Positions 9,001-22,536 are shown, counted from the first letter of the stretch. The stretch is DNA of 64,000 nucleotides from Candidatus Omnitrophota bacterium (GCA_026387335.1 JAPLLX010000004.1:189485-253484), one strand, 5' to 3'. Notes: generated by a model not told the origin, from the letters alone. Translations and numbers: made by a program.

Positions 9001-12000
9001 CATTTTTTCTGCTGTATCCAACATCTTCGCGAAAGAAACCATGGCATGGCCAGCTCCCTGAATCTCAACTTGTTCGTAATTAAGAGGAATTTCGACATTC
9101 TCTGGTCTTGATGTATCACGTACCCTGGCATTATGAATCACAACATCGGCAATAGCCTGTAAGCTGTTGGCAACGCGTAAATCATGCGCGCGGCCGCTGG
9201 GATTAAGCGGGATTATAACCCACTTATTACGTTCGGCATCAAAAGCAGTAAGTTTATCTAAGCCGGTAACTTCTGCTCTGGCCACCATAGACGCTTTCAA
9301 CGCAGCTACGAGACGCTCTCCTTCAGGAGTTTTCCTCAGTGCATCTAAATCCAATCTTTCTTGCTCTAATTTTTCTCCCGCGCTATACCTTAAAAATGCT
9401 TCGATTAACGCATCGTTACCGGCAGGATCAACTATAGTTTCTCCGTCTTTATCTCTGCTGCGGGTAATCTCGTATTTATCATCTAAACTTTTTAAGGAAA
9501 GTTCGCCATTAAGTGTTTCTGTTAAGAACTTGTGCGCCCTTTCAACTAAGGCTTTTTGAGAATCAAATTCTTCTTTGCTTATTTTGTCAAATCCATCGCT
9601 AATTTGAAGAGAAGGATTATCCAAATAATCCGTATTGGTAAGCACCGCTTTATCTAATAATTCTGTCAGGGCTTTATCGTGCGCGGATAATTGCTCTCTG
9701 GGCATTTCACGTAAACCCATTAGATACTGTAAATCGTGTTCGGATACAATAACCGCACTTTTATCCGCAAAATTTATAGCCGGTTGGTCGCTATCTTTAA
9801 CTCTCCAGCGGACTATACGGTCTGCATCTACAATTGATTTCGCGAAAGCATTTCCTTTCTCGGCTGCCCTTCTTACATCACCCATAGTTTTATCGTAAAC
9901 CTGATCAGCATGTGTATCGCTTTGCTCAACAACAACTAACATTTTTGCTTTAGGACCATAGGTACCGTTTTGTATAAGCCCTAACTCGGCAATAATACCG
10001 GCGGTACTCTTGCCTGCTGAAGGAGGAGCAAAAATTGATAAGACTAAAGGTTTAACAGAACCAGCGACATAGCGGGCTCCCAAAACCATTTTTTCAAGCA
10101 TATTAGCCTGATCTTTATCCTTAACTCCTCCATATATATTTATTACCGGGTCTGCAGCTACATTATAATAATCTGACTTTATGCGCGTTTCCGCAGCCCG
10201 CTTAATTTCAGGAGTAACTTCAAAACTATTAACCCTTCTGCCCAAGAAACCATCTCTATAAAATACCTTGCTACCTTCTTTAGCATAAGCAACCTGTCCT
10301 ACAATAAGAGAGTCAATCTTCCCTGTAGCTGTAACTTCTGCAGCTTTATCTACCGGAATTATACGCTCTGAGGCGCCTGGTTTCATCCAATCAGGACGAA
10401 CATTTGACTTAGCCTCTTCCGGAGAAATTATAGTAGCGCGGCCGCGCTTAGTGAGCATCTCTGTTATTCCGCCAAAAATAGAACGCTCGTTTTTACTCAT
10501 TACAGGCGCAGCTGCAGGAACCCTAAAGAATCCTGCCCACTGTATAAACTCACTTTCAGGTGTACTGAATACGGCGCGGTCTTTAGGTGTTAAACCATTA
10601 CCATCAATTAAATTGCTTAAGGAGGCTAAAGAATATTTACCTGTATTACCAAAATAATTTACGGATTCTTTTAATCCAGTAACTACGCCGGGCATAAAAA
10701 CGCCTAAAGACCACGCATGATTTAAGGTTTCATTGGAGAACGGCTTTTGAATACTTAACGCTGCATTCTCACTTATCGAAAGTTTTTCAGAAGCCCTTGT
10801 TTGTAGAATACCTATCGCGGGAGCCATCCAGACACCAGAACGCGGGCCATAAACAAAACTGGATAATAATTCTGTCTGTCCTTGCTTAGAAGAGAATAAA
10901 TCTACATACTCACCTTTTACAATATTATTACTCGCATCTCTCTTCTCTATGGCAAACCAGGGCACGGATGGTTTCCCGTCTATGGCATGCTCCATATTAA
11001 CAAGGGCGCCACGCCATAAAGCGCCACTGACAGTAAATGACGGGCTAACATATAACCATGTTAAAGCGCCTCTGACAGAAGAATTAAATAACTTGGTCGG
11101 AACGGAATACAGAGCCTGTAAAGAAAAATCGCGTTCAGCCATATACCCGGCTCTTGAGGTAGGAGAAAATATATTCTTGGTTGTTCCCAGATAAGAAGCA
11201 GCTAACGTGCCAATTGCCGCTCCACCAAAGACACTTGCTACGGCCTGTCCAAAAGTATAATTATTTCCAGACCTATACGCGTCTAAAGAATCATGGGTAA
11301 GCTTAATCCCTGCTCCGGTAATAGCCCCATACTCTGCCCTCGCCAAATTTAAACCTGCTGGCGTAGCAGCGGGAAGACCTTTTATTCCTAACCCGATCAG
11401 GCCTCCGGTAAGCACATTAACCCAAGTATAGCTACTCTGAATATTATCTAAGAGATAACCTTCCCCAGACATTGTTTTTAGCCCAGTGGAAAGTAACGGT
11501 AGGCTGACTGCTCCTAAGGCAAAAGAGGTACCATAACGGACTATACTGCTTTCAGTATTAATTCTAAGCGCTGTACTCAAATTATTAATAGTATTTTTTA
11601 TAATTCCGCCATTAGCTACTAACGCGCCTGCGCCAGTCAAAGCTAAACCAAACGCAGCGCCATCACGCAAACCTTCTCCGTAGATACCAAGCCCTTCTCC
11701 AAAACTTAATGCCCTTGCCGTACCGGTTTCATTTAATCCCACAAGATTACCAATAACAGCAGTAGTTAGATTTATCTGGCCCCATAGAGGAGCTTGAGTT
11801 CCCATCGCATATCCAACCTTGGCTAAAAATGGACTGGCCAAAGTAGCCCCTTCGACAATCAAAGATGAGAGAACCTTTGACGCTACAGGAGTAGCTAATC
11901 CAGCAATGGCAAGCAAAGCATTTGTTTCTCGCGGTAGAAATTCACCAGTTGTGCACAGAGAAACAACGTTTGGTACTACTAAGGTAACTACTTCGGAAAT

Positions 12001-15000
12001 CGTATATGGATTTGCTAATAAATTTATAGCGGCTTTCCCTGCTTGACTCTCAACTCCAAATCTTGCGGCTAAACGCGAACCTAAAGAAGGGGCAATTTCT
12101 TTTGCTGTAGCTACTACACCTCTCCCTAAAGAACCTACTGGATAACCCAACATAGCCCAGAATAATGCATCCTTTGCCAGATCTCCCCCGGATGCCTGTA
12201 TCTCGCCGTTAAGCAACTGGTCTCTTTGTTTAATAAGGTTATCGGCTTTCTCCCATAAACGGTTTCTCCAATAATTTGGTTCTGCCCCTAGCCATTCATT
12301 CGGTTTATCTATAAGATAAGCTAAAGGCGCGCCTAATATATCTATCATTGCAGCATACCCGCTGGAGCCCGCTTTAAGATAATTCTTAATTTTACCCTCA
12401 GAGGTATCCTCTAGGGGAATTGAAATTCCGGCAATACTAAGCTTACCTTTAAATTCTTCTCCTTCAATGGCTTTATTGAGATTGTTGATAGCGGTATTTA
12501 ATTTTTCTCCATTCACACCGGGATCAAACCTGGAATCGCCTGTATCATTATGAATTTTTGTGATTCGTTGTAGCACTGCGCTTCTTTGCGCGTCACTATG
12601 CTGTTGATAAATATCCGCTACCCATTTTTCAAAACCTGCAAAATTAGAAGGTAAGGTAGCTATTTTACCCGAACGATAATCATCAACCCATTGATTCCAA
12701 CCCAATTTTTTAGCATTTTCTTGATAATACTCAGAATAGGATGTAGTATTTTCTTTGTCTGTTTTATTTAAAGCGTCAACGCGGGTTAATAATTCGGCTT
12801 TCTTAATAACTGCCTTTTGTTCATCATTAAGCTTACCCTTAACATAAACTTCTTCAGTTAATCCTGCTTTTTCAGCTTCTGCTTTATTAAACCCCTTAAG
12901 CTGGCTGATATCGTAAAACCCAATTTTCTTAGAATAAGTGCGCATATACTCAGCCAGGCCTGTTTTGCTGTTCAAATCAGCTATATCTGATTTAATTTCA
13001 TCTTCTGTTGCCCATCCTTTATTTACCAGGTCTTGCATAAAGGCTATCCTTACTTTATCATCCTGGGGACGAGCCTTAAAATTAAGGAAGGCGTCAATTG
13101 CAATCGCGCTATTCAAAAGTTTGCTTGTGCCATTAAAATCTTCTTTATCAAGCGATTTCCGCGCTTTCTCTAAAAGGCCTTTAATTTTTTCGTCTTTTTT
13201 AGTCTCGTTTGATTTTTCTAATTCCTTCAGCGGCTTCTCTAAATTCTCCCTCATTTCCTTCTTTGTAACAAATTTCTCTTTGCCATCCTCCTTCGTAAAA
13301 TAAACTTCTTCACTAGTCTTTAACGAATAGTTCTTTTGGCTCATCTCATTCTTAGAAGGCTGGCCGTTAGGAAAATCAATCGTTCCCGAAGCCTTAGTGG
13401 ATTGAAGATAAGTTATACTGGCTACTCCTTTTTTCTCATCCGTGCTTAAAGACCAGGGCATCTTAAATCCCTTAGGAGCGGCATAAGCTAAACCTTCAGC
13501 CTGAGTAATAACCTTGTATTGCACATCGCCGTTAATACCCACGCCCAACATTACCGGAACGGAACTCTCTTCAGAAGGAAGAATAACTGCCCCTAATCTA
13601 TCTTTGACTTTTACCACCTGGGTTTCGCCTTTTTCGCCCAAGACAAAATATTTATCTTTATTCAGCGCGGCATCGGTTTTCTGACCCCAAATGCCATCTG
13701 TTTTTACTTTTAAGTCCGCCTGTAATTTCTCTACCGCTGTTTTATACAGCGGATCTTTATCGCCTTTTATAACAGCGGCTTTATCTAAATAACCTTTCTC
13801 CTTTAAAATACCTACCTTATCCTTAAAGGCTTTATCAGCTGTTGACCCTTCCATACCTTCATTCATAAACGGCAAGGCCTTAATTAAAAGAGCTGGGCGC
13901 GCTATGCCGTCTTCCTTATTCACCAGCAGCTCTTGGCCGATAATCGGCGATGTGCCTACCCCTGCTTTTCCTCCGTCTTTCACATTAGTCAAAGCCCAGA
14001 TAACTTGATGCCTGTCCTGCAATTCAGAATCAAATAAAATCTTATCTTTCGGAGTAACCCAATTCCATACGCCGGCCTTATCCTTTTCCTGAACCGCGTA
14101 ATTAGCGAAAGATGAAACGATATGCAGAACGCCGGCTTTGCTGCCTACTCCATTAATAATAATTCTATCTTTATTCTTGGTATCTATTTTGCTACCCGGC
14201 TCAGAATCTTTCAGGTAAGGTTTGGCGAGAAAAGTTTCGGTGAGTTGGCCAACGCCTTCAATTTCACCATTTGCCTTAAAGGAAATCTCCGCCTCTTTTT
14301 GATTATAGTTAGCGCCTATCCAATGAAGGTTTACATGGCTAATCTTGCCGTCCGGGCCTAAATTTATTGCCACATTACGAAGCAGACTCATACCATCAGG
14401 GAAATCTAAACCCGCGACTATAACTCTCCCCTTAGAAACATCTACATTATCGTAAATGACTACTTTACTTGCAGGGTCAATAAGGTTATATTTCTTGGTT
14501 TTTTGGTCTTGCACTAATTTATAAACGCCTTCATATGTCTCCACAGTCTTATCTTTATTAATCTCATAGGATTTGGAGGTCCTGGCGCCGCTATACTTTA
14601 TCCCCTGCGCTTCGGTAACCAGGTCAAATTTAAATTTATCCTCCTTATCAAAATCCATACCCGTCAATATTCCGCTTTTACTAAAATATACCGGGCCGGT
14701 TGGATTTTGCTGATAACGTTCATGATCTATTTCATAAGTAAAGTCTCTGGATAATTTAGGGAGAGACTCGGAATTATTTTGAACTCTTAGTTCGTTTTTA
14801 CTGTCATCCCAGGGAACAGAAATAATATCTTTTCCCGCCTGATCCTTAGCCACAGTTACTTTAACCTTTTTCTCCTTATCATTATCATTAATAAGGTAGC
14901 TCTCTTTTACTCCGTCTTTAGTTGATTCTTGTAATTTCCAACCTTCTAGAGGACCATTTTTCTCATATAAAGAAGCGCTATTCTCAAGGCCACGGGATAG

Positions 15001-18000
15001 TGAAGGATTAACTGCGCCGGAAAAAACTAAAGGAGCTGGACCGCCCCAATGCTGGATAGGCCTGATATTAAATTCTTTGCTCGTTGCAGCGTCTGTTCCC
15101 TTGAACGCTAACTGGCCGACTAAAGGTGAGTTGCCTTTTAAAACTACTTCGGAGGTATCTTTACCTGTTTGCCTGGCTACTTCCCAATCAAGACTATGCC
15201 CCTTTTGCACAGCATTCCCAAAGATTACCTCATCGGGAATTTCATTTCCGATTCTATACGCAGCCCAAGAACTTATAATATAGCTAACGCCGTTACTGAG
15301 AAACTCTTTAAGTTTTTCGGCTGAGTTTATATTCTTGATTTCCCCTATTAGTTTAGCCTGAAGCCGGGAGTCTTTTATCTTCCCGCCTTTTGCATCAGTA
15401 AACTCTCCTTTTTCTGCTGCTTCTATTAATACAGTCTTACCTGTTTCAAAATCTTTGTCTATCTTCTTTATTAACTCCGGGTTAAAGTATAATCTTTCTG
15501 TTATTTTCTCCTTGAGATATGTTTCCGAAAGCGTACTATCATTTACGCCAATTGTAAGAATACCTTTATTCTCTTTGTCGCCTCCCGGCCTTATGCCTAA
15601 AGAATTAAAAGTAATGCTTCCGTCTTTATGCACAGAGTAAGAAGTAACCAGGCGCGTATTCCTATCTCCTTCTGCAATCGGAGTATTATCGCCTTTTGAG
15701 TTATCTCGGACCATCTCAAATCCGTTTTCTCCCGACCATTTTGCTCCTTTGGCAAAATTAAGGCTGCTTAAATCCAACCCTACAATATTACCATTCTGGT
15801 GATCAATGTTGGCCACCCAGCCGCCAAAACCCCTGGCAGTAGTCATGGGTATTTTGTTAGAATCTTGAAAAGAACCTGCTCTTGTTAACGCTACCATATC
15901 AGTCTGCGGAGATTCTTTCCCCTCGCCGCCGGCTTTGGGCGTTGGTATAATTAAGTCTCCGTTTACAAGCAAAACAGGGTTGCCGCCAAACTCACCTAAG
16001 TCATAAATAGTGCCTTTTGTCTTTGCAACTATTGATTTATTATCAAACAGTGCGCTGAGAACGTCTTGCTTAGGGACTGGAGTCATAAGAGATTCGCCAC
16101 CTAGTTTACTTTCTAGAAAGTTATCAGCAGGCTTAGAAGACATAATTTCCTGTCTATAACGCTGCTCATATTCTCCCCGGGCATAAGAAAGCTTGGCATC
16201 AAAAGTCTGCTTGCCAAGCACATCAAAGGTGTATAGATAATCTAACTGTCTTAATGTAAGGTCGTTCTCAACGCCGTTTACATCTTTAATTTTTTCAAAC
16301 TTCTTGGTGTCGCCGGGATTAATTATTTCTTTTATAAAAGCTCCGTCGCCGTAAAAATTACCGTCGCCAATGGTAATCTCTCCGGATTGTTCTTTTCGAT
16401 GTCCCAGATACGTGCTGCTATCAAAACGCACGCCCGTATATTTGTCGGCGTAATAAGCCTGGCCTTTTATATTGTCTTTACCCCTAATTGCAAATTCCGG
16501 CACTTTCCATTGAGCGCCCTTGGCATAGTTTAAAGAATTAGGATCTAAACTTAACTGGCCGTCTTTATTATGCACCAAAACCCCTACGGTCCCGGTCATC
16601 TTGTTAACTTCGGCTGACGCGGATTCAACATTCACTACCACACCAGACCCAGGCCCATAAAGGCTCTTAGCATAATCTAAGAATGGCGATCCTGCGTTCT
16701 TTACAACCCAAGTTAACCACTTTTCTGTTTCAGTTGCTTCAACACCCGCCGCCGGCCCAGAATTTTGTAGAGATGTTTTAAATTTTTTGGCCCTATCAAG
16801 ATAATCAGCAGCAGGATAGCTATCTTCCGACAGCTTTTTATTTCCTGCTTGATCTCGGGGTTTAGAATTGGCATTAGTATTATAAGCACTAGTCTCTGGA
16901 AGCAGCAGCTTTAAGCTAACGCTCTCATCGATATTAGAGCTAATGGATATATTCTTCTTTATGAAATCCTTATTTGCTTGTGAGTCATATTTATTAGAAA
17001 GCGGGTTACCGTTAAATTCACTGCGATACCCTGAAACATACTCCACAATATCCTTTTCGTTAAAATATTGATATAAGCCTGTATCTCCCCATAAAACTGC
17101 CGGAACCATCTTGATGTTAATAGTAGAAGTAATGCCTGATTCCTTAGCCTTGATTACCGTAGGAAAGAAGGTCGGATAGATTATGTCCCTGCCTAAGCCG
17201 ACCAGGTTATTTACTGAGGCAAAATGCAAGGTAGACTTGGCGTAATTAACTAAAGAATAAGAGGCGGAAGGTAAAAGCGAGCTGAGGTTCCCATCATCAA
17301 TGAACTTACCCCAGTCAGTATAACCTTTTTGTTTCATTAAATAATCGGCATTGGCTTTGAAATCAGAGGTTCCGGCAAGCTGGGCAATCTTTTCTATATA
17401 TTGAATTTCAGACCAGCCGCCTGCGCCTTTGGTGTATACCGGAGAGGTGCCGCCTAAAGAAACATAATTGGTGGCGAATTCTTCAAATCGCTTATTAAAT
17501 AATCTTCCTGCATACCCTGCCCAAGATTTTTCGCCTAATTCTGCAGTTGATTTATTCGCAGCGATAATTGTGCCGGCTGCAGAATAAAGAGTGGCTGTTC
17601 CTAACCAGTTAACCCCCTCCATTTGTAATCGGGTCAGGCCCCATTTATTCTTATCTGTAACTTTATCAAAATCTCCGCCTAAAGCATTCAGCCCGGCTGA
17701 AACGCCGCCGGATAGAAGGCCGTTAAAAGCCGCTTGATCCCAAGTCAGTTTGTTGGCATTTGCTCCGGCTATGCCTCCTAAGGGCTCGCCTAATAAACGG
17801 CTATAATTAGGATGTTTCTTAAGCTCGCTGCCAAACACTCCCTGAGAAGCAGCATATTCAACAGCCAAACCTACGCCCTGAGAGATTAAAGAACCTTTCA
17901 TATCCTGTAGGGCATATAGAGCGCCCTGATAAGCTGTCGAAGGAGCCACGTAGGCGGAAGATTTTCCTCCTTCTTGAATAATATTTCCGGATATATTCTT

Positions 18001-19551
18001 TGTCACATCCATACCACCATCTCTGTAACTACCAAACGCGTAATAATGCGTCTCCGTCTTTATATTACTAATATCGTCAGGCCCGTTTTCATCTATTAAT
18101 GTTGCTACTTCTCTCGGTGTTACTTCAGTCTTGGCTTGATGTCCCATATCGAAAACAGTGCCAGAGGCAGCACCCATTGCGATGCCAAACGCTTCATAAC
18201 CTATAACGTTCCCGGCGAGATTAGCAAACTGCCGGCCAACATAAGGATTATTCTTAAATAAACTGGTATCTTTCAGCGCCTCATAGGCAAATACGCTGGC
18301 GCCGGCTTTGGCAGCGCCTAAAAGTGTTCCTCTTAAGGCACCCATCCCAATTGTAGAAAGAGTACTGTTTGGCTGGTAATAAGCAGTGGTTGCTCCGGAT
18401 AAGGCGGCGATTGTCACAGTACTTAATATTCCGGCGGAAGTAGGATCCATCCCGAAGTTCTGCACTGCTACGTTAGTCGCTGCCTGGGCAATTTGGCTAT
18501 AGAGCATTGCCTGGCCAAAAGAAGTAACTCCTTTACTTAATGCCTCGCCAGCACTAAGAGCAGATGCTGTTCCGGCTACTGAGAAATAGGAGTAGGCGGC
18601 TGGTATGGCGACAGAAGCAACCGTAATCCCTAACCCCAGCCACATATCCCCGTCAGAAGGTTCTTTAAATAAAGCAGAGACATCGGCATAGCCTTGCTTG
18701 TTGGATCTGGCGCCTAAGACTTGTTTGGCTTCGGCATCAGTCAAAGGGACAGTCCCCTGCGGGGACAGTCCCTGTATTAAGGCATAACCGGAAAAATCTT
18801 TAAGGAATTTCTCTATTGGCAGGAATTCTTCTTTATGTTCATCTAAGAAGTAAATTTTTTCACCGCTAATTTTAGTGATTAAAACATAGTGGTCGCCGTT
18901 TAGGTGAGCAATGAAAGGAGTTAAATCTGCGGATAACTCGGATAACTTAACCGGGTAAAGTTTAAGGCCGAAAAACTCTGAAGCTTTGGATAAGGCGTAA
19001 AGGGAATTTTTAATAACTTTGGGATTACCTTCCGGCTTGACTACGTCATTTAAGATATCTATGGTTAAGGCAAAAACCGCGATATCCTGCTCTTCTACCT
19101 TAACCCCTTTATAGCTTAAGTAGTCATAAAGCGACTTGGTACCGCATGGTTTACACACCAGCCAGTTAAACAACTCATCTATCCTCTGATTGGACATTTT
19201 CAGTGGTTTATCCAGGGTTATGGTCAGATTCTCTGAAACTTTTATAGCAGTTATGGGTTTATTGGCTATATCTTTGAGGATACTTTTTACTGCCTGAGGA
19301 ATGTTAAGATTTTGGACATTTTTAAGGTAATTTGGGGCAAATACGTTGTTGGAAGGAAGGCCAATAGCGGGTTTATTCCAGATTACGCGCCAGTCATATT
19401 CTACTGCCTGAGCTGCCTGTTCAGGCAAGAAGACTACGGCAACAACAAAAGCTGCCACGCGGATCCAAGGCTTAAAACTGGAGTGGAACTTTTCCTTGGC
19501 CGCTTCTTTGGTAACTGCCTTGTCTTCTATATTGGCTCTTGGCTTTATCAT
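1..19551 (-). CDS. Giant multi-domain membrane/surface protein, 5' part of the gene in window (start ATG about 19549-19551; ORF continues past position 1; at least 6,516 aa in window). Domains seen: N-terminal signal anchor + C39-like Cys peptidase, multi-TM Gly/Ala block, P-loop kinase-like domain, second papain-like segment, Gly-rich linker, LysM between TM helices, K/E-rich charged region, further TM helices
   Basis: Manual reverse-complement translation in the phase whose + triplets start at positions congruent to 1 mod 3. No TTA/CTA/TCA (minus-strand stops) were found across lines 1-1620 or in spot checks at 7.0, 9.7-10.2, 12.0, 15.0, 17.5 and 18.7-19.55 kb, while in-frame + strand TAA/TGA/TAG are frequent, the signature of antisense. 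The ORF track lists no minus ORF of 60 aa or more between 1505 and 19551, consistent with one ORF lacking an in-window stop. N-terminus reads MIKPRANIEDKAVTKEAAKEKFHSSFKPWIRVAAFVVAVVFLPEQAAQA... then ...NWLVCKPCGTKSLYDYLSYKGV...TPFIAHLNGDHYVLITKISGEKIYFLDE (C39-like Cys/His pattern). Confidence 0.85.
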   Translation of the reverse strand, partial: MIKPRANIEDKAVTKEAAKEKFHSSFKPWIRVAAFVVAVVFLPEQAAQAVEYDWRVIWNKPAIGLPSNNVFAPNYLKNVQNLNIPQAVKSILKDIANKPITAIKVSENLTITLDKPLKMSNQRIDELFNWLVCKPCGTKSLYDYLSYKGVKVEEQDIAVFALTIDILNDVVKPEGNPKVIKNSLYALSKASEFFGLKLYPVKLSELSADLTPFIAHLNGDHYVLITKISGEKIYFLDEHKEEFLPIEKFLKDFSGYALIQGLSPQGTVPLTDAEAKQVLGARSNKQGYADVSALFKEPSDGDMWLGLGITVASVAIPAAYSYFSVAGTASALSAGEALSKGVTSFGQAMLYSQIAQAATNVAVQNFGMDPTSAGILSTVTIAALSGATTAYYQPNSTLSTIGMGALRGTLLGAAKAGASVFAYEALKDTSLFKNNPYVGRQFANLAGNVIGYEAFGIAMGAASGTVFDMGHQAKTEVTPREVATLIDENGPDDISNIKTETHYYAFGSYRDGGMDVTKNISGNIIQEGGKSSAYVAPSTAYQGALYALQDMKGSLISQGVGLAVEYAASQGVFGSELKKHPNYSRLLGEPLGGIAGANANKLTWDQAAFNGLLSGGVSAGLNALGGDFDKVTDKNKWGLTRLQMEGVNWLGTATLYSAAGTIIAANKSTAELGEKSWAGYAGRLFNKRFEEFATNYVSLGGTSPVYTKGAGGWSEIQYIEKIAQLAGTSDFKANADYLMKQKGYTDWGKFIDDGNLSSLLPSASYSLVNYAKSTLHFASVNNLVGLGRDIIYPTFFPTVIKAKESGITSTINIKMVPAVLWGDTGLYQYFNEKDIVEYVSGYRSEFNGNPLSNKYDSQANKDFIKKNISISSNIDESVSLKLLLPETSAYNTNANSKPRDQAGNKKLSEDSYPAADYLDRAKKFKTSLQNSGPAAGVEATETEKWLTWVVKNAGSPFLDYAKSLYGPGSGVVVNVESASAEVNKMTGTVGVLVHNKDGQLSLDPNSLNYAKGAQWKVPEFAIRGKDNIKGQAYYADKYTGVRFDSSTYLGHRKEQSGEITIGDGNFYGDGAFIKEIINPGDTKKFEKIKDVNGVENDLTLRQLDYLYTFDVLGKQTFDAKLSYARGEYEQRYRQEIMSSKPADNFLESKLGGESLMTPVPKQDVLSALFDNKSIVAKTKGTIYDLGEFGGNPVLLVNGDLIIPTPKAGGEGKESPQTDMVALTRAGSFQDSNKIPMTTARGFGGWVANIDHQNGNIVGLDLSSLNFAKGAKWSGENGFEMVRDNSKGDNTPIAEGDRNTRLVTSYSVHKDGSITFNSLGIRPGGDKENKGILTIGVNDSTLSETYLKEKITERLYFNPELIKKIDKDFETGKTVLIEAAEKGEFTDAKGGKIKDSRLQAKLIGEIKNINSAEKLKEFLSNGVSYIISSWAAYRIGNEIPDEVIFGNAVQKGHSLDWEVARQTGKDTSEVVLKGNSPLVGQLAFKGTDAATSKEFNIRPIQHWGGPAPLVFSGAVNPSLSRGLENSASLYEKNGPLEGWKLQESTKDGVKESYLINDNDKEKKVKVTVAKDQAGKDIISVPWDDSKNELRVQNNSESLPKLSRDFTYEIDHERYQQNPTGPVYFSKSGILTGMDFDKEDKFKFDLVTEAQGIKYSGARTSKSYEINKDKTVETYEGVYKLVQDQKTKKYNLIDPASKVVIYDNVDVSKGRVIVAGLDFPDGMSLLRNVAINLGPDGKISHVNLHWIGANYNQKEAEISFKANGEIEGVGQLTETFLAKPYLKDSEPGSKIDTKNKDRIIINGVGSKAGVLHIVSSFANYAVQEKDKAGVWNWVTPKDKILFDSELQDRHQVIWALTNVKDGGKAGVGTSPIIGQELLVNKEDGIARPALLIKALPFMNEGMEGSTADKAFKDKVGILKEKGYLDKAAVIKGDKDPLYKTAVEKLQADLKVKTDGIWGQKTDAALNKDKYFVLGEKGETQVVKVKDRLGAVILPSEESSVPVMLGVGINGDVQYKVITQAEGLAYAAPKGFKMPWSLSTDEKKGVASITYLQSTKASGTIDFPNGQPSKNEMSQKNYSLKTSEEVYFTKEDGKEKFVTKKEMRENLEKPLKELEKSNETKKDEKIKGLLEKARKSLDKEDFNGTSKLLNSAIAIDAFLNFKARPQDDKVRIAFMQDLVNKGWATEDEIKSDIADLNSKTGLAEYMRTYSKKIGFYDISQLKGFNKAEAEKAGLTEEVYVKGKLNDEQKAVIKKAELLTRVDALNKTDKENTTSYSEYYQENAKKLGWNQWVDDYRSGKIATLPSNFAGFEKWVADIYQQHSDAQRSAVLQRITKIHNDTGDSRFDPGVNGEKLNTAINNLNKAIEGEEFKGKLSIAGISIPLEDTSEGKIKNYLKAGSSGYAAMIDILGAPLAYLIDKPNEWLGAEPNYWRNRLWEKADNLIKQRDQLLNGEIQASGGDLAKDALFWAMLGYPVGSLGRGVVATAKEIAPSLGSRLAARFGVESQAGKAAINLLANPYTISEVVTLVVPNVVSLCTTGEFLPRETNALLAIAGLATPVASKVLSSLIVEGATLASPFLAKVGYAMGTQAPLWGQINLTTAVIGNLVGLNETGTARALSFGEGLGIYGEGLRDGAAFGLALTGAGALVANGGIIKNTINNLSTALRINTESSIVRYGTSFALGAVSLPLLSTGLKTMSGEGYLLDNIQSSYTWVNVLTGGLIGLGIKGLPAATPAGLNLARAEYGAITGAGIKLTHDSLDAYRSGNNYTFGQAVASVFGGAAIGTLAASYLGTTKNIFSPTSRAGYMAERDFSLQALYSVPTKLFNSSVRGALTWLYVSPSFTVSGALWRGALVNMEHAIDGKPSVPWFAIEKRDASNNIVKGEYVDLFSSKQGQTELLSSFVYGPRSGVWMAPAIGILQTRASEKLSISENAALSIQKPFSNETLNHAWSLGVFMPGVVTGLKESVNYFGNTGKYSLASLSNLIDGNGLTPKDRAVFSTPESEFIQWAGFFRVPAAAPVMSKNERSIFGGITEMLTKRGRATIISPEEAKSNVRPDWMKPGASERIIPVDKAAEVTATGKIDSLIVGQVAYAKEGSKVFYRDGFLGRRVNSFEVTPEIKRAAETRIKSDYYNVAADPVINIYGGVKDKDQANMLEKMVLGARYVAGSVKPLVLSIFAPPSAGKSTAGIIAELGLIQNGTYGPKAKMLVVVEQSDTHADQVYDKTMGDVRRAAEKGNAFAKSIVDADRIVRWRVKDSDQPAINFADKSAVIVSEHDLQYLMGLREMPREQLSAHDKALTELLDKAVLTNTDYLDNPSLQISDGFDKISKEEFDSQKALVERAHKFLTETLNGELSLKSLDDKYEITRSRDKDGETIVDPAGNDALIEAFLRYSAGEKLEQERLDLDALRKTPEGERLVAALKASMVARAEVTGLDKLTAFDAERNKWVIIPLNPSGRAHDLRVANSLQAIADVVIHNARVRDTSRPENVEIPLNYEQVEIQGAGHAMVSFAKMLDTAEKMGAVATVLFAGAMTDRQKDTMRIVFGMDSVGEVSKPILDANLNVVGVNNVNNNAIFELGSKETSNKGKDVTIYVDTQKSEQHGDSQLSIGDFSAFYKDNTRFILDQRGIWQMVEVGRELKDAKPVSEVIKNSGRNNSPIEYVTEQIASGKGVKVLISRPNTYGIDINGVSDKAVLVAIADSKSELLPIFQGSRRLRPVSGSDFDSVDRVLIVRDLSGVDVKSLEGVKELEKLFGKNQDQADKQDLLHKERDLIRDAKFKINLLLGSLLGPKAMEKIAQVNRLEQGNDSVRQLQNVRGQADLTVEHLDTERDHGMKFLRDQWGQGDLRELYPEKPKTAQEMKAKAIVDEFILFRDAYSKIEKALRAELKNEYEGKPAYKQLTPEQVRAIFAKEFTGKDYPKFTSANMEYGVTVRGEKRGVPSAVPSEELGPVTFENFAKGQPALAEKFNNLPAETQALFVRGGYMVGRGGLNLAMQTVQLWDERERKEVNVFLNRIGLPELALPEADILITPEQSFDLAVNLAQRGYIDVSNPYRGVDSIVRVATLTSLAADKLAGTAFTPTEVERLQLGLDNPVEFLTRNLQKGNSSLESALIKFNAQRHSSIFKDKRTMGGLQQVAVAMGKTQSLIDLMPLVLPLGPTQVEAYRQLNLSGISSKVLGRLSIADYLFLNSDPLARGQLFATSTNAATRQAADLMNTFMQTQGVVKRDVLRRFVDNPQQEAQRLGLPPKEIENVAAAFRELLNSTSGKTVQYALVVETLKNKNLVNSKDIHTGLRKLGINPQFEYGLRFNDAENALVAQRTSQGQENVKFEDILINPQEHENAFFRLLGPDIASRLLGNGSSLFTRQQALEFINNIQSANPDDARLDNSLKILNGLTDDASLYLVFRALQPAQTFIAEQEFKAQGSTAVEKEMGSNWYGKDKGYEGVQVEIGPSGFLRGPDKTKNTSAQVYEPSVGEKNYTIKADSVDNFVITKDAQGKLSIRLNLAGHYNFGRGAHEAFHIAVKNIGSNPSNIVILSPNGRDIDAEATVTAQQNYANLLAEMGTLENRELSESDFSISELGVNEGLTRFLSMRALINSLNSAEDTERQNLLATESTTLGGFTGHANKVLKTEQTVDKVLNDITELFKKGELLGKIHSDVTEEKSLVDLKLNDLLEKMKKQMDTAAPVEEKAAVNDNTGGSSSISGPNAKVQILAGALSALTGARIVSSSIAETGAALEYIGKIVNRLFGAVARMLGGQKPDQTTSPLERRSPMPLPVAGTVVSGVGASSSVTRALTALDLSPASLLYAGKVIQFNTIATPNPVVGTGTGVAPPASSPTNSDSKFVGVKDIRAYKLGVIEANEFKSLAGSQSANKETSGSIRATSSPLNSGVFVSGIPTKTSSSPANNSTITDLEKAIKLLNRLLGQDYFRNNKDDRMMLEGLRQKDPTAYGTVLRAIQDRDFEKARSEMYGLIRSAVKGIMNVEDNIPHLKAVLMRWFNDSYFEDTTVNSITDEDITNRYVIGLSIIANYVKTAQLHPELQEGLSEEIIRELFNGIANGNIVAAVQKIVRKEIQELEENNERTHKKAKEELAGFFSKMQGVVKEEVRGLSTKVNDQGEEIVNLRKAIDDGDKSVLRAVEGIIQGFDGRLRIAEGKRGIQPADCLPGSFYTVDSVLAAEIEEAERKLGRGLLLNELNQIAKGRLQYYLLSPKIIESMDSNTLGNLNLIVVQSGHAFLVRGKYANGDLMVTEYNNKGEVTETRPVSIESVALYNGKIVSIIHWNNVSAVENYKKENNLDDKDIREIKKEEMDEVSGVIGYIQELNGSSGGGSAQGGTGTGAAAGNGGAAAGPKGTGKGKGGFGEGPEAANFNLTNGASEAYGIVDWLNIISEDRKRVSGLAPPTVILSSSSAVNIKNILSNISNAYLTAGIFLFVSLVLPIQSFAATAANNILTVGKGDTWGHIVLEYFGKSGMKLWGEKGRAIETWRQVKGANQSYSAMDHINAGQQIDVSKILTVPGVPPAPQAPKGEESILSKILDYFTTNPKMIWAIAIVAIIILGLIAVKIYLNHRAEKVRKAAEEAAKLATQQEAERKAAEERDRLAKETVTKKVTEDAKKTPEAADKANVEGIKDEKIVDEKGHVSAKDNAGVQAEVTAENKQDPVNATASKDLFSTANDLLILGNSEYDAEEYFKALATYQKVEGILIKYSLEVKDQLTNAVISEESKAALIKQALELNNKLYEIEVKIAGCSSKITSEATNFANQINPGKANGGSSPVRELPVSANIPIETVTVSSSPINKLVTTSFLGTLRNILEKGRSYFRLEASITAQPKETGVGVTNLSLAPPLARIAASVSNFLIQMYRVIIGGGKNGKPNVEISGRNEKDRIRVFEGRISRSSLKSYSNELRGQGHYRTETPSLRLLEARFVKPVSNHAKGYNGLSPPCAALIAILLNSAVVISLLLVLSFTNSDINNLINLTRPLAFSVAGELAAYVVVNGGAGALLQGLTPLVAAITTIIEGGVPCVLSMLMILGLITLLTSPRTTLLLPQLVRTPAVISGSSSLTMLWELSTRATAVPIVGRRSSALRASSSVSRLAMQGDVFPSTKSTARTTKNRDGSVREPSLTVGSSPVFSSPIKKSSKTYWLKIVTVVALLVISAFTAIYHIHGRHERIQPTIEALRKADPAIFTKEDKVFKDFKSLVKYLMEIARVNRNLELGADYCYLGKDGWHLKIGAIGEEDGVVIKNIPGSILLHFHTSNGELSLEDLYSTLNRQSIIVSPDEVLVFKDEHKEKHNKFRGIFERAGNQAEALRRGKKVSEEKYLGKFMDLLKEHTSEEDHNGIYQDIFVQAGGEYLETIENIRVALGLKIIKFTWTSSSPAASSSVNVTYNSQGRLVKYASGEAITETIDGIEVITITKQASEVLAETARIKKNLEEFDFLGITKLSAEARKAEASKALGLEPDASKKTIKTMYRGLARLFHSDTSPVKVDGIYIQTLNSIKETLEESSSSSANKALDMAILNIIE

Positions 19552-19715
19552 TTTATTTTTATATTACTATATACATAAAATGCAAAATAAAAGTTCCCCT
19601 TTACCCCATTACTCTTTTTAGCTTGCGAGTGAGAGTCTTTCATATTTTGTTTTATAAAGCGTTTGTAAAATCCCTTACTAAGCTTCTAAAAAGAAAAACC
19701 GAACTGTCAAATTTC

Positions 19716-19825
19716 CGTCGGTAATTCGGCAGCCCGGCTATCCTTTGATAGGCACTATTTTTGTTTCTTTGGGACCCGCGGCTTTGCGCCCCCGGATTTC
19801 TCCGGGTTTGCCATTTCGTTACTTA
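19716..19825 (-). ncRNA. c-di-GMP-I (GEMM-I) riboswitch aptamer in the 5' leader of the giant gene
   Basis: Minus-strand sequence ...AAAUGGCAAACC-CGGA-GAAA-UCCG-GGGGCGCAAAGCC-GCGGGUCCC...GGAUAGCCGGGCUGCCGAAUUACCGACGG matches the hallmark GEMM-I elements as I recall them from V. cholerae Vc2: GGCAAACC, a P1b hairpin with GAAA tetraloop, GGGACGCAAAGCC, and the 3' ...GUUACCGAUGG closing segment. A U-rich tract (UUUUUCUUUUU, + coords about 19690-19705) follows as a possible expression platform. Confidence 0.7.
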
Positions 19826-19841
19826 CCTCAACTACAAGCAG

Positions 19842-19869
19842 AGTATAACACATAGCTCGTCGCTGTCAA
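19842..19869 (-). promoter_or_regulatory. Sigma70-type promoter for the giant gene and riboswitch (-35 TTGACA, 16-nt spacer, -10 TATACT)
   Basis: Minus-strand read: TTGACAgcgacgagctatgtgtTATACT. + strand tgtcaa at 19864-19869 and agtata at 19842-19847. Predicted TSS about 19834, immediately upstream of the riboswitch. Confidence 0.55.
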
Positions 19870-20056: not shown

Positions 20057-20121
20057 TAGACTGGACATTTTTAGGTGATTCTCGATATAGAATGGACATT
20101 AGGAAGTACTAGATTGGACAA
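20057..20121 (+). repeat. Three direct repeats of TAGAnTGGACA(T/A)T with 30- and 22-bp spacing; candidate transcription-factor binding sites
   Basis: tagactggacattttt, tagaatggacattagg, tagattggacaatcta seen in sequence. A fourth copy, agattggacattt, lies at about 32896-32908 next to the promoter of the 31003..32883 gene. Confidence 0.5.
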
Positions 20122-20199
20122 TCTAATGAGATATAAATGCTCATTTATTTATGTTAGACTTTATGATTTATAACGTCAATTATAGTAGAAAGTAGATTA

Positions 20200-20567
20200 A
20201 TGACTAATATCCAAGCCCCAATGACGAATAAAATCCCAATGACTCAAATTCCAAGTAAGAAATACGACCTGCGAGAAAGAACTGCTAAGTCGAGAATAGC
20301 CTGACCAGGCCATTAATAAGTCAACTGGTCAGGGCTGGCACAAGCGTAGGAGCTAATTATTGCGAAGCAGATGATTCTACAACAAAGAAAGATTTCGTGT
20401 ACAAGATTGGTACTTGTAGAAGAGAATCTAAAGAATCAAAATACTGGTTAAGAATACTCACGGCAGCAGCACCTTCTCTAGCGGAAGAAACAAAACCATT
20501 GTTATCTGAAGCTCAAGAACTAAATTTAATATTTTCTGCGATTATTAATAGATCTCAAAATAAATAA
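20200..20567 (+). pseudogene. Four-helix-bundle protein (TIGR02436, 23S rRNA intervening-sequence protein family), disrupted by a frameshift and internal deletion
   Basis: ORF1 (20200..20304) reads MTNIQAPMTNKIPMTQIPSKKYDLRERTAKSRIA* and ORF2 (frame -1, ending 20567) reads ...LISQLVRAGTSVGANYCEADDSTTKKDFVYKIGTCRRESKESKYWLRILTAAAPSLAEETKPLLSEAQELNLIFSAIINRSQNK*. ORF2 matches the family core (QLLRSGTSIGAN...SKKDF..K...E..ET.YWLELL...ELVKILTSII). About 12 codons expected between TAKF and ISQL are missing, and all three frames carry stops at 20286-20304. Confidence 0.6.
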
Positions 20568-20628
20568 TTGTAACTTGGAATTTGGAACTTCATTCGTCAT
20601 TGGGATTTGGTGATTGGGATTTTGGGTG
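20211..20628. mobile_element. Mini-element bounded by imperfect terminal inverted repeats of about 45-55 bp (20211-20255 and 20574-20628), carrying the degraded four-helix-bundle gene. IVS-like or MITE-like
   Basis: The left arm ccaagccccaatgacgaataaaatcccaatgactcaaattccaag matches the reverse complement of the right arm (cacccaaaatcccaatcaccaaatcccaatgacgaatgaagttccaaattccaag). Shared blocks are cccaatgacgaat, aaatcccaatgac and caaattccaag. AT-rich relative to flanks. Confidence 0.5.
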
Positions 20629-20634
20629 TATTTA

Positions 20635-21849
20635 TTAAAAGCTAAGTAGGAACCTTAGGCCGCAGACTATCTCAGTGCCTTCTGCCTTATCAACACTGGG
20701 ATGAGTAACTACTTGGAGGTTGGGAGTCAGAGCCATACATCCGTTTAGATAATAGCTGTAATAGGCTTCGTACATAGTTTCAGCGCGCCAGGTTTCATCG
20801 TAGCCATTTGCTTCCCGGTAGTCATCACCAACAATAGATTGGGCTACTCCTATTCCCAGGCAGTCAAATTTACGCCCTGGAAAAGGTTCAGTAACTTGAG
20901 CGCCGCAAGACCAGAAATACTCAATATCCCTGACCTTGGGGTCAGCAACTCCGTAGCGGAAAAAGAGGGTTGCGTTCTTAGTTATTGCCTGGTCAAAACT
21001 CAAAGCAAACCCGGAATCATTCTTTTTGGTTTCGTCAGAATTAAGGTAGTCTAGCTTTTGATGATTAGTATAAAAGATAAAACGGTAATTACCCTGCAAG
21101 GAGCCGAACTTAGGGGTTAAACCGAGCTCATTGATAAAAAACGCGCTGTTGAACGCATCGCTTAAGCCTGTTTTTGTGTAACTGACCTTGGCCGTGCCTG
21201 TGCCGGACTGAAAATAGAGCCATTCGTAGGGTTCAAAATTTACCAACGCGGCTATCCCTATATAAGGAAAAGGAATAGTCGGGTTATTTACCAGCGCGCT
21301 GGATGAAAATTGCGTATCCCCGCAACCCGCGACTTCATTATAATCAAACCAATCGGACAGATTCAGTTTACCGGCGGTAAAAGTTATCTCATCTTTAAAA
21401 AGTTTCTGCTCTATATACAACGCAGGTAAATAAAACCAGGCGCTTTCGCCTGCATTATCACTAAATACTGAATAGGTAGGTAAAAACTTGTCCACGCCCT
21501 TTCCTTTATCCATCTCAAACTCGGCGAAGAGCGCTCCTCCCGGCCAAAGCTTCTGTTCAATTTCAAGATCCCAATACCAGGGGCCGCGGGACTTGCCTTC
21601 ATCGTGTTTACTCTTGATTATCGCCTGTTGAGCGTAGTTAAAAAGGAAAGCGAATCTTGTCCCGTATTTTTCGGCAAAGCTCTCCCTTTGCGCGTCAAAA
21701 TCTTTAAGCCAACTATCTACGGGGGATATTTCGACTTTCTCTTCTTCCTGCTCAGATACCTCTAAAGGTGTACGCGCTGCTTGAGAAGATGGGATGGCAA
21801 CGGATAGGGTTAAGGTGACGAGGAGAATATAAACATTATTTAAGCACAA
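20635..21849 (-). CDS. Outer-membrane beta-barrel porin (carbohydrate-porin/OprB-like); signal peptide, C-terminal ...GLRFLLSF
   Basis: ORF track translation. N-terminal signal peptide, alternating amphipathic beta-strand pattern rich in Y/F/G, C-terminal Phe typical of OMP barrels. Confidence 0.55.
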   Translation of the reverse strand: MCLNNVYILLVTLTLSVAIPSSQAARTPLEVSEQEEEKVEISPVDSWLKDFDAQRESFAEKYGTRFAFLFNYAQQAIIKSKHDEGKSRGPWYWDLEIEQKLWPGGALFAEFEMDKGKGVDKFLPTYSVFSDNAGESAWFYLPALYIEQKLFKDEITFTAGKLNLSDWFDYNEVAGCGDTQFSSSALVNNPTIPFPYIGIAALVNFEPYEWLYFQSGTGTAKVSYTKTGLSDAFNSAFFINELGLTPKFGSLQGNYRFIFYTNHQKLDYLNSDETKKNDSGFALSFDQAITKNATLFFRYGVADPKVRDIEYFWSCGAQVTEPFPGRKFDCLGIGVAQSIVGDDYREANGYDETWRAETMYEAYYSYYLNGCMALTPNLQVVTHPSVDKAEGTEIVCGLRFLLSF

Positions 21850-22255
21850 TTATATTTTCCTTCAAAAATTTCTGTATCGCCCTTAGGATTTCCTTCTTAA
21901 ATTTCGGAGGGCTCTGGGCGATCCACATCGTAAAATTATAAAGTTCCTGCGTGTCAACCTTCAGCCATTTCCTGTTTTTATGCAGGAAAACAAATAGGGC
22001 GGTCATAGCGATTCTTTTGTTCCCGTTTTGAAAAGGATGATTTTTAATCATCAGATAAAACAGAATACCGGCTTTAGCGACAAGACCGGAATAAAGAGAT
22101 TTCCCGGTAAAGGTCTGGAAAGGTGCGGCTAAAGAGCTTTCTAGGACGTTAGGGTAGCGCGTAGAAAATCCGGGTATAGGCTCATTAAAAGATAGTAATT
22201 CCTTGGCCAACCGGAAGGCAATATACTCTACTTCTTTTACATTTAATTTTTTCAT
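21836..22255 (-). CDS. Fic/Doc family toxin
   Basis: Motif HPFQNGNKRIAMTALFVFL = Fic/Doc signature HxFx(D/N)GNKR. 139 aa. Its start overlaps the stop of the upstream HTH gene. Confidence 0.8.
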   Translation of the reverse strand: MKKLNVKEVEYIAFRLAKELLSFNEPIPGFSTRYPNVLESSLAAPFQTFTGKSLYSGLVAKAGILFYLMIKNHPFQNGNKRIAMTALFVFLHKNRKWLKVDTQELYNFTMWIAQSPPKFKKEILRAIQKFLKENIIVLK

Positions 22256-22536
22256 TAATTCTTCCCTAGAAGCTTCAAAGTCTGGCCATACTCAGAGACT
22301 GTCTTTCTTACGGCAGCCTCTATTTCCCTTTTATCTTCCGCATTCAAACTCTTGCCTAGAATAGAGTCAAAATGTTTCCTGGAAATAGCGTAATTCCTAC
22401 CTATCTTTACCGCTTTAATTTCACCGCTCTTAACCTTCTTAAAAATAGCGATCCTACTTAAACCTAAAATTTTAGCCACCTGCGGAATAGTAAGGTGCTC
22501 TCTTTGTCTACTGCCGACCATCATTTTCACCTCCAA
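22255..22536 (-). CDS. HTH (excisionase/MerR-like) DNA-binding antitoxin partner of Fic/Doc
   Basis: 93 aa. LTIPQVAKILGLSRIAIFKKVKSGEIKAVKIGRNYAISRKH is an HTH_17-like motif. Translationally coupled upstream of the Doc gene. Confidence 0.65.
   Translation of the reverse strand: MEVKMMVGSRQREHLTIPQVAKILGLSRIAIFKKVKSGEIKAVKIGRNYAISRKHFDSILGKSLNAEDKREIEAAVRKTVSEYGQTLKLLGKN

Follow-up and report, generated by a model that had tools for sequence, protein, structure and literature searches.

In the Candidatus Omnitrophota bacterium GCA_026387335.1, the stretch between an OprB porin gene and the promoter of a giant gene is occupied by an AT-rich hairpin unit enclosing a broken gene for a four-helix-bundle (4HB) protein, which was analyzed here in a window of 64,000 nucleotides (JAPLLX010000004.1:189485-253484; one strand, positions counted from its first letter). 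We interpret this unit, with a probability of roughly 0.6, as a recently inactivated copy of a free-standing, selfish hairpin cassette of the type known from intervening sequences (IVSs) in 23S ribosomal RNA (rRNA). The same layout recurs across phyla, and in each element one arm is complementary to the other. Several lineages have acquired or lost the unit as a single block with identical boundaries, and it decays into internally deleted hairpins and hairpins that lack an open reading frame (ORF). We file the element as an IVS-type S23p hairpin cassette outside rRNA, of which the window copy is a pseudogenized member with the following parts:

20120-20634, no strand assigned: whole presence/absence unit (515 nt), leader plus hairpin cassette; replaced by 9 nt in the related locus L096
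20120-20196, plus strand: 5′ leader (77 nt) upstream of the left arm, possibly the cassette's own promoter and 5′ untranslated region; Shine–Dalgarno sequence degraded, GTAGAAAGTAGATTA-ATG
20197-20262, plus strand: left arm, an array of AAT/CAA-phased heptamers holding the ATG at 20200 (from fold pairing and inverted repeats I1, I2, I6 and I7)
20200-20304, plus strand: N-terminal ORF remnant MTNIQAPMTNKIPMTQIPSKKYDLRERTAK, then out of frame to a stop (from translation and alignment to intact homologs)
20290-20291, plus strand: junction of a frameshifting 37-nt deletion that takes out residues 31-43 and with them most of helix 1
20307-20567, plus strand: C-terminal ORF remnant, 86 codons plus stop, helices 2-4 (from TIGR02436/PF05635 matches)
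20565-20638, plus strand: right arm, a reverse-complement heptamer array (…ATTGGGA…) whose outer end abuts or overlaps the porin stop codon at 20635-20637

A first-pass annotation of this DNA had assigned the broken gene to the TIGR02436 family. Profile hidden Markov models agree: the frame at 20307-20564 scores 61.9 bits against TIGR02436 (cut-off 24) and 44.8 bits against PF05635 (cut-off 33.8), and it is 99% identical to an 80-residue 'four helix bundle protein' (P0012) annotated by NCBI in a metagenome-assembled genome (MAG) of Candidatus Omnitrophica. The same annotation had described the gene as frameshifted and short of about 12 codons, and both defects are accounted for by the single 37-nt deletion. 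This costs the residues FGENIINFAKKIP and corresponds to alignment columns 111-147, which among the homologs aligned are gapped in the window sequence only. The loss of most of helix 1 together with the reading frame makes the window copy a pseudogene, without the complete in-frame four-helix bundle that its orthologs encode. Helix 1 comprises residues 25-41 in the AlphaFold2 model of an ortholog, so that the deletion would break the fold even if the frame had been preserved. The surviving frame nevertheless still displays a dN/dS of ~0.1 against its relatives, which points to a recent inactivation. The Shine–Dalgarno sequence GGAG/GGAGG of the relatives reads GTAG…GTAGAT in the window. Thus, the protein of the window cassette is dead (helix 1 deleted, frame shifted, Shine–Dalgarno sequence lost) and the hairpin alone survives.

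That inverted repeats bracket the ORF, as previously proposed, was borne out by both a repeat search and shuffling. The arms align at 20206-20239/20582-20615 (34 nt, 79%) and 20245-20264/20565-20584 (20 nt, 85%); the score of their best local alignment, 33, was matched by none of 2000 mononucleotide shuffles and by one of 3000 equally spaced pairs of segments from the window. In the minimum-free-energy structure of the unit, these terminal inverted repeats (TIRs) form a terminal stem that pairs 20197-20262 with 20565-20638, and the RNA duplex of the two arms has a ΔG of −53.7 kcal/mol. The 451-nt unit folds with z = −5.4 on the plus strand and −4.9 on the minus strand. Within the right arm, a direct repeat (D3) occurs as TTCGTCATTGGGAT/TTGGTGATTGGGAT. 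The GC content is 0.33-0.38 inside the unit versus 0.42-0.50 in its flanks, in keeping with the AT-richness noted earlier.

The closest proteins (P0002, P0001 and P0005) are encoded by intact ORFs in loci syntenic with the window, in the order giant gene (minus strand), cassette (plus strand), OprB gene (minus strand) and two T2SSF genes; the porin has been lost in L092. Across nine intact close relatives, the core of the protein (residues 22-134) has a dN/dS of 0.08 at a proportion of synonymous differences (pS) of 0.70, and the 4HB protein is thus functional and under strong purifying selection there. In these relatives the left arm is translated as an N-terminal extension. Its 21 codons have a pS of 0.25 and a third-position identity of 0.87, versus 0.67 in the core, and their conservation tracks the 7-nt phase rather than the codon phase, with CAAT invariant at every seventh base; the left arm is thus constrained at the nucleotide level. 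The AlphaFold2 model of P0002 (pLDDT 89.4) comprises four helices preceded by a disordered, arm-encoded tail of 21 residues (pLDDT 45-51). It superimposes on 2RLD (TM score 0.86), 2GSC (0.84) and 4DWL (0.81; root mean squared deviation 2.4 Å, 13% identity), the last being Avd, the accessory protein of diversity-generating retroelements (DGRs); the sequence match to 2RLD has E = 4.7e-15. The leader is conserved in L081, L085, L090 and L092, each with GGAG/GGAGG at 6-10 nt upstream of its first ATG, and it is missing from every empty site. A search for a sigma-70 promoter of the cassette gave a single plus-strand match, which is weak (20093-20122, 9/12) and lies just upstream of the leader. The 7-nt periodicity of the arms, the translated left arm of intact relatives, the inclusion of a 77-nt leader in the unit and the single deletion all go beyond the first-pass annotation.

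Empty sites were sought by scanning metagenomes with the porin, which yielded 28 loci. The closest relative, L096, has a porin 94% identical to that of the window (pS 0.15) and shows 95-97% identity over the region of the TGTCCA boxes, the riboswitch and the start of the giant gene, yet it lacks the cassette: the 515 nt of window 20120-20634 are replaced by the 9 nt GATAAAAAA, between the porin stop codon and a TGTCCA box. Likewise, L097, L099 and L101, which are syntenic, lack the cassette between the same boundaries, the porin stop codon lying 0-4 nt from the TGTCCA box, and filled sites are found in L081/L104 (L104 being L081) and L085/L086/L116 (L116 being L086). The cassette is therefore a presence/absence polymorphism with discrete ends, as expected of a transposon or miniature inverted-repeat transposable element (MITE). 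Its distribution on a neighbor-joining tree of the porins is patchy and requires at least three gains or about five losses; that the boundaries are identical each time speaks for a unit entering or leaving the site as a block.

The same site has seen other traffic. In L106/L107 (4195-4800, minus strand), the core is replaced by another 4HB gene (116 residues, 52% identical) with arms of its own, flanked by the leader of the previous cassette on one side and the outer part of its right arm on the other; this points to the heptamer arms as the place of an insertion or a recombination event. L098 (4366-4926) and L100 carry a gene for a 186-residue IS200-like Y1 transposase (PF01797, 46.8 bits) at the same post-porin position, apparently a hot spot for insertions. 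Unrelated contexts, too, harbor elements with 69-79% identity to the window copy, whose homology ends at the outer arm ends: after an HU gene in L093, between a LamG gene and a gene for 3716 residues in L084, after a gene for more than 3008 residues in L088, and between two OprB genes in L090. Synonymous divergence between window and relatives is lower in the 4HB gene than in its neighbors (0.31 versus 0.52-0.65 for L085; 0.53 versus 0.65-0.70 for L081; 86 codons only), a difference suggestive of exchange. L096, for its part, has an insertion of ~50 nt that is not in the window (~4286-4357, corresponding to window position ~20046), a near-perfect palindrome, GGGACAGCGACCGTTTTCC…GGAAAACGGTCGCTGTCCC, which may be another miniature hairpin insertion.

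The reach of the architecture was assessed by scanning one genome per GTDB species, which returned 80 loci with homologs of 45-64% identity, 78 of them scorable. Most are MAGs, and their bin labels may be wrong in places; the labels cover Omnitrophota, Patescibacteria/Saccharibacteria, Planctomycetota, Verrucomicrobiota, Margulisiibacteriota, Cloacimonadota and bins assigned to Gammaproteobacteria. Near-identical cassettes and arms in L071 (binned as Gammaproteobacteria) and L073 (binned as Microgenomates) reflect either mis-binning or very recent transfer. An inverted repeat of 25-69 nt encloses the ORF in about 70 of the 78 scorable loci, with z > 5, a value that overstates specificity, as the shuffles behind it destroy the 7-nt periodicity. 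The arms are tandem heptamers: bases 7 and 14 nt apart are identical with a frequency of 0.56 and 0.48, respectively, compared with ~0.26 inside the ORF. Their consensus is AAT[G/T][A/T]C-N (commonest units AATTTCT, AATGACG, AATGTCT and AATGACT), and mismatches in the stem peak at heptamer position 5 (32%), mostly as GAC against GTC, giving A·A or U·U. When left arms were aligned to the right arms of other elements, the median score was 26, compared with 43 for an element's own arm, and after row and column correction own-arm complementarity exceeded expectation in 71 of the 78 loci (Wilcoxon p = 2e-13). Taken together, the cross-element control and the corrected test indicate that the stems mix a generic repeat vocabulary with element-specific mirroring.

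An rRNA gene was found by Rfam scan neither in the window nor in any of the 58 homologous loci scanned, so that the free-standing form is the rule for this subfamily, and the earlier premise that the family normally resides inside 23S rRNA IVSs does not apply to it. Some loci are more elaborate. The L088 cassette is nested in a second, outer inverted repeat built from another unit (TATCAG upstream at 3910-4000, CTGATA downstream at 4460-4560). In L015, L017, L031, L032 and L071, an extra AAT-type array follows the 4HB stop codon directly before the right arm; there, the right arm could possibly pair either locally, as a short hairpin, or with the distant left arm, as alternative structures.

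Derivatives of the cassette were called with a strict array-hairpin detector, as a cruder AAT/ATT detector was confounded by AATT heptamers. L050 (320-560) holds an internally deleted element in which a perfect heptamer stem of >26 bp surrounds the ORF fragment …SKKDFRNKIGICKKEARETKHW…, and ORF-less hairpins with heptamer arms occur in L010, L014, L042 and L054. Second full copies are present within 8 kb in L010 and L045. The window copy, with arms retained and ORF broken, is an early stage of the same decay. Of the cassettes in 68 loci, 54 point in the same direction as the upstream gene and 44 in that of both neighbors, and the median distance from the upstream stop codon to the left arm is 3.5 nt. 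The window copy belongs to the minority that is antisense to both neighbors, and it is this class that carries the conserved leader.

The cassette region (20197-20638) is flanked by two minus-strand genes, included here as context only:

1-19551, minus strand: giant ORF starting at 19551, open for at least 6517 codons and running past the window edge
19724-19869, minus strand: giant-gene control region, a promoter-like site plus riboswitch, 97% identical in the element-free L096
20635-21849, minus strand: OprB-family porin gene (PF04966, 118 bits), convergent with the cassette, stop codon at 20635-20637

The giant gene encodes a Peptidase_C39 domain near its N terminus. Its best promoter-like site is near-consensus (19869-19842, minus strand, TTGACA-16-TATACT) and lies ~330 nt from the left arm; between this site and the giant ORF is a cyclic di-GMP-I-GGC riboswitch (19821-19724, minus strand; RF03167, 66.9 bits). 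Riboswitch and giant-gene start are kept in ten related loci at 77-97% identity, and an ORF of 31 codons (19548-19643, minus strand) lies in the stretch between riboswitch and giant ORF. Three 13-nt direct repeats, TAGAnTGGACAwT (TGTCCA(A/T)(T/A)CT on the other strand), occupy window 20057-20122; TGTCCA boxes directly follow the porin stop codon in all syntenic loci and are probably transcription-factor sites of the giant-gene promoter region. The same porin adjoins the cassette in L081, L085 and L086. A Fic/Doc toxin gene (PF02661) with an HTH_17 gene (window 21836-22536, minus strand) separates the porin from the T2SSF genes, a pair that is not found in the syntenic L081. Although cassettes of the same clade also adjoin giant genes in two other Omnitrophota loci (L084 and L088), the cassette is incidental to the giant gene and has no required role there, since four syntenic relatives without it keep the whole control region.

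An intact cassette consists of an optional short leader, a left AAT-phased heptamer array holding the start codon, a gene of ~115 codons for an S23p/Avd-like 4HB protein and a reverse-complement right array. We envisage it as a selfish or mobile insertion that is tolerated by the host and would depend on host transcription, for which its predominant co-orientation with, and close spacing behind, upstream genes count. The transcript is predicted to fold into an imperfect duplex of 45-65 bp enclosing the ORF. By analogy with 23S rRNA IVSs, which contain the same gene and heptameric repeats, ribonuclease III (RNase III) may process this duplex, and a pentameric 4HB protein may bind it, much as Avd binds RNA stem-loops in DGRs. 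The protein would then serve the maintenance or expression of the cassette itself. In terms of the first-pass annotation, its reading as a decayed, IVS-like and probably mobile unit is upheld by the arms with their S23p ORF, the 515-nt unit and the derivatives, while neither its premise that 23S rRNA is the normal home of the family nor its alternative of a cis-acting RNA is supported.

Several results weigh against a mobile hairpin cassette. The difference between window and L096 fits a gain in the window lineage and a loss in the L096 lineage alike, and the reduced synonymous divergence of the 4HB gene may stem from transfer or just from additional constraint. Much of the arm complementarity is generic, AAT arrays pairing fairly well with any ATT array and an element's own arm being the single best partner in just 11 of 78 loci. 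Non-Watson–Crick positions in the stems display no strand bias (78 G-T versus 80 A-C) and so lend no specific support to selection on a plus-strand RNA. In the close clade, RNAalifold retains the terminal stem, but the arms are nearly invariant and compensatory changes are few (7 of 67 pairs, mostly inside the ORF). Called neighbor genes in the syntenic and related loci include no transposase or reverse transcriptase, and there is no target-site duplication, the longest direct repeat spanning the boundaries averaging 4.3 nt versus 3.9 nt in displaced controls. Among IMG/VR viral contigs, 181 pattern matches included no confirmed relative. Finally, the unit is single-copy in the window, where no paralog was found.

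Some of these points would be accommodated by a domesticated host gene whose heptamer stem exerts post-transcriptional control, by sequestering the start codon, stabilizing the mRNA or coupling translation to the upstream gene. Presence and absence would then reflect ordinary recombination or deletion promoted by repeats, and the window copy would simply be a pseudogene. The strong purifying selection on the protein (dN/dS 0.08), its long residence at one locus in several Omnitrophota lineages, the lack of transposase and target-site duplication, the start codon inside the left arm with the Shine–Dalgarno sequence just outside the stem in intact relatives, and the placement of most copies in the orientation of the upstream gene, ~3 nt past its stop codon, are all in line with this. 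We nonetheless consider it unlikely, because it does not readily account for empty sites with the same boundaries and no remnants in at least four lineages, for the replacement of the core by a different 4HB gene at the same site, for close elements in unrelated contexts whose homology stops at the arm ends, for internally deleted and ORF-less hairpins scattered over other loci, or for the same 50-60% identical subfamily in very distant phyla. More doubtful is a non-autonomous, MITE-like DNA transposon with the 4HB gene as cargo, in which the arrays bind a trans-acting transposase, such as a Y1/HUH enzyme recognizing hairpins. TIRs of repeated short motifs, presence/absence polymorphism, deletion derivatives, stems without G-U strand bias and the occurrence in L098 and L100, at exactly this position behind the porin, of a gene for an IS200-like Y1 transposase would suit such an element. 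The missing target-site duplication counts little against it, as Y1 elements make none either; more telling is that cargo would rarely be retained in almost every copy and under such strong conservation as the 4HB gene, that an orientation bias toward host transcription is unexpected for a pure DNA transposon, and that no transposase is consistently linked to the cassette.

The two remaining explanations tie the unit to its neighbors. A cis-acting structured RNA or insulator, which the first-pass annotation had offered as its alternative, might terminate the porin mRNA or mark it for processing, or regulate the giant gene from upstream, and its location between the porin stop codon and the giant-gene promoter, a minus-strand fold about as stable as that of the plus strand (z = −4.9) and the giant genes beside same-clade elements in L084 and L088 could be cited in its favor. 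However, L096, L097, L099 and L101 keep porin, TGTCCA boxes, promoter region, riboswitch and giant gene without the element, in L096 with promoter region, riboswitch and gene start at 95-97% identity; moreover, the unit has neither an Rfam match, at gathering score or at E ≤ 1, nor an intrinsic-terminator-like site, and a neighbor-directed role is highly improbable. Least credible of all is the remnant of an Avd accessory gene from a DGR that targeted the giant gene. DGRs abound in Omnitrophota and the Candidate Phyla Radiation (CPR), Avd has its homologs among PF05635 proteins and the model matches 4DWL with a TM score of 0.81, but the identity to Avd is just 13% (Foldseek E = 0.28) and S23-family structures score far better. 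Furthermore, no reverse transcriptase is found among the called genes of syntenic or related loci, and the 64-kb window contains no repeat of the unit resembling a template repeat/variable repeat (TR/VR) pair. A role in defense or in phages found no credible backing either, PADLOC returning one weak match (14.9 bits) and PHROGs none.

The protein family, its rRNA IVSs and its link to Avd are already known. ORF-containing IVSs of 23S rRNA have been recognized since about 1990. The window cassette resembles them in size (~430-500 nt), in the long terminal inverted-repeat stem enclosing an ORF of the same Pfam/TIGRFAM family, in its heptamers, in the decay of the ORF while the stem stays, and in a patchy distribution for which mobility is suspected but unproven. 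It differs from them in lying outside any rRNA gene, between a porin gene and the promoter of a giant gene, in arms that are long arrays of 4-10 heptamers on both sides, in the translation of the left arm in the Omnitrophota clade and, here, in a unit with its own leader. Among the IVSs with ORFs from Leptospira, Coxiella burnetii, Xanthomonas and Brucella, that of Coxiella is 428 nt long and has a 28-bp TIR stem cut by RNase III, a decaying S23p ORF and, at its 5′ side, tandem heptamers (GACAGAT)n with an ATGAC core, whose number varies between strains (PMC4990558). Insertions in CPR rRNA genes also encode the S23p/4HB domain (10.1101/2024.02.27.582315), and Avd is a basic pentamer that binds RNA stem-loops, the DGR RNA pairing sequences on either side of its cargo (10.1101/2023.10.23.563531). 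Fold (TM score 0.83-0.86) and profile membership place the protein with the S23-family pentamers (2RLD, BT_0352; 2GSC, Xcc0516), from which the window copy departs in lacking helix 1 and being frameshifted, and its intact relatives in adding the arm-encoded disordered tail of 21 residues. With Avd (4DWL, 8UB7) it shares the four-helix-bundle fold (TM score 0.81), but in contrast to Avd in DGRs it is accompanied neither by a reverse transcriptase (called genes) nor by a TR/VR pair (64-kb window).

MITEs, repetitive extragenic palindromes and their mosaic elements (REP/BIME) and the short tandemly repeated repetitive (STRR) sequences of cyanobacteria are likewise short repeated units that form hairpins and are scattered between genes, with ORF-less derivatives among them. 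The same AATGACC-type heptamer is even found in STRR units, for example TTGGTCA (TGACCAA on the other strand). In contrast to all of these, the cassette carries a conserved protein gene and shows no target-site duplication; any link to STRR sequences or to REP-associated (RAYT) or other Y1 transposases is conjectural.

Within the library of full-text papers that we searched, those on IVSs, CPR insertions and DGRs include none on free-standing heptamer-armed cassettes, filled and empty sites, core swaps or miniature derivatives. Heptamer-array/4HB cassettes might, as a tentative generalization to which we give less than even odds, form an unrecognized class of bacterial mobile elements and be the free-living source of ORF-containing 16S/23S IVSs, and possibly of STRR-type repeats. 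Such elements would move with no DDE transposase and leave no target-site duplication, an Avd-like pentamer recognizing the heptamer duplex, and hosts would tolerate them in operons since the stem would be excised from the transcript.

Mobility and the role of the conserved 4HB protein are old questions about 23S IVSs. The present locus and its relatives demonstrate that the same cassette lives mostly outside rRNA, with arms that follow a defined 7-nt repeat grammar, clean filled and empty sites among close relatives, swapped cores and miniature forms, which makes the old question testable through RNase III cleavage of the stem, binding of the pentamer to the heptamer duplex and the capture of new insertions. 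For annotation, thousands of genes labeled 'four helix bundle protein' have N-terminal extensions that are translated repeat arms, and heptamer hairpins beside genes may be relics of such cassettes.

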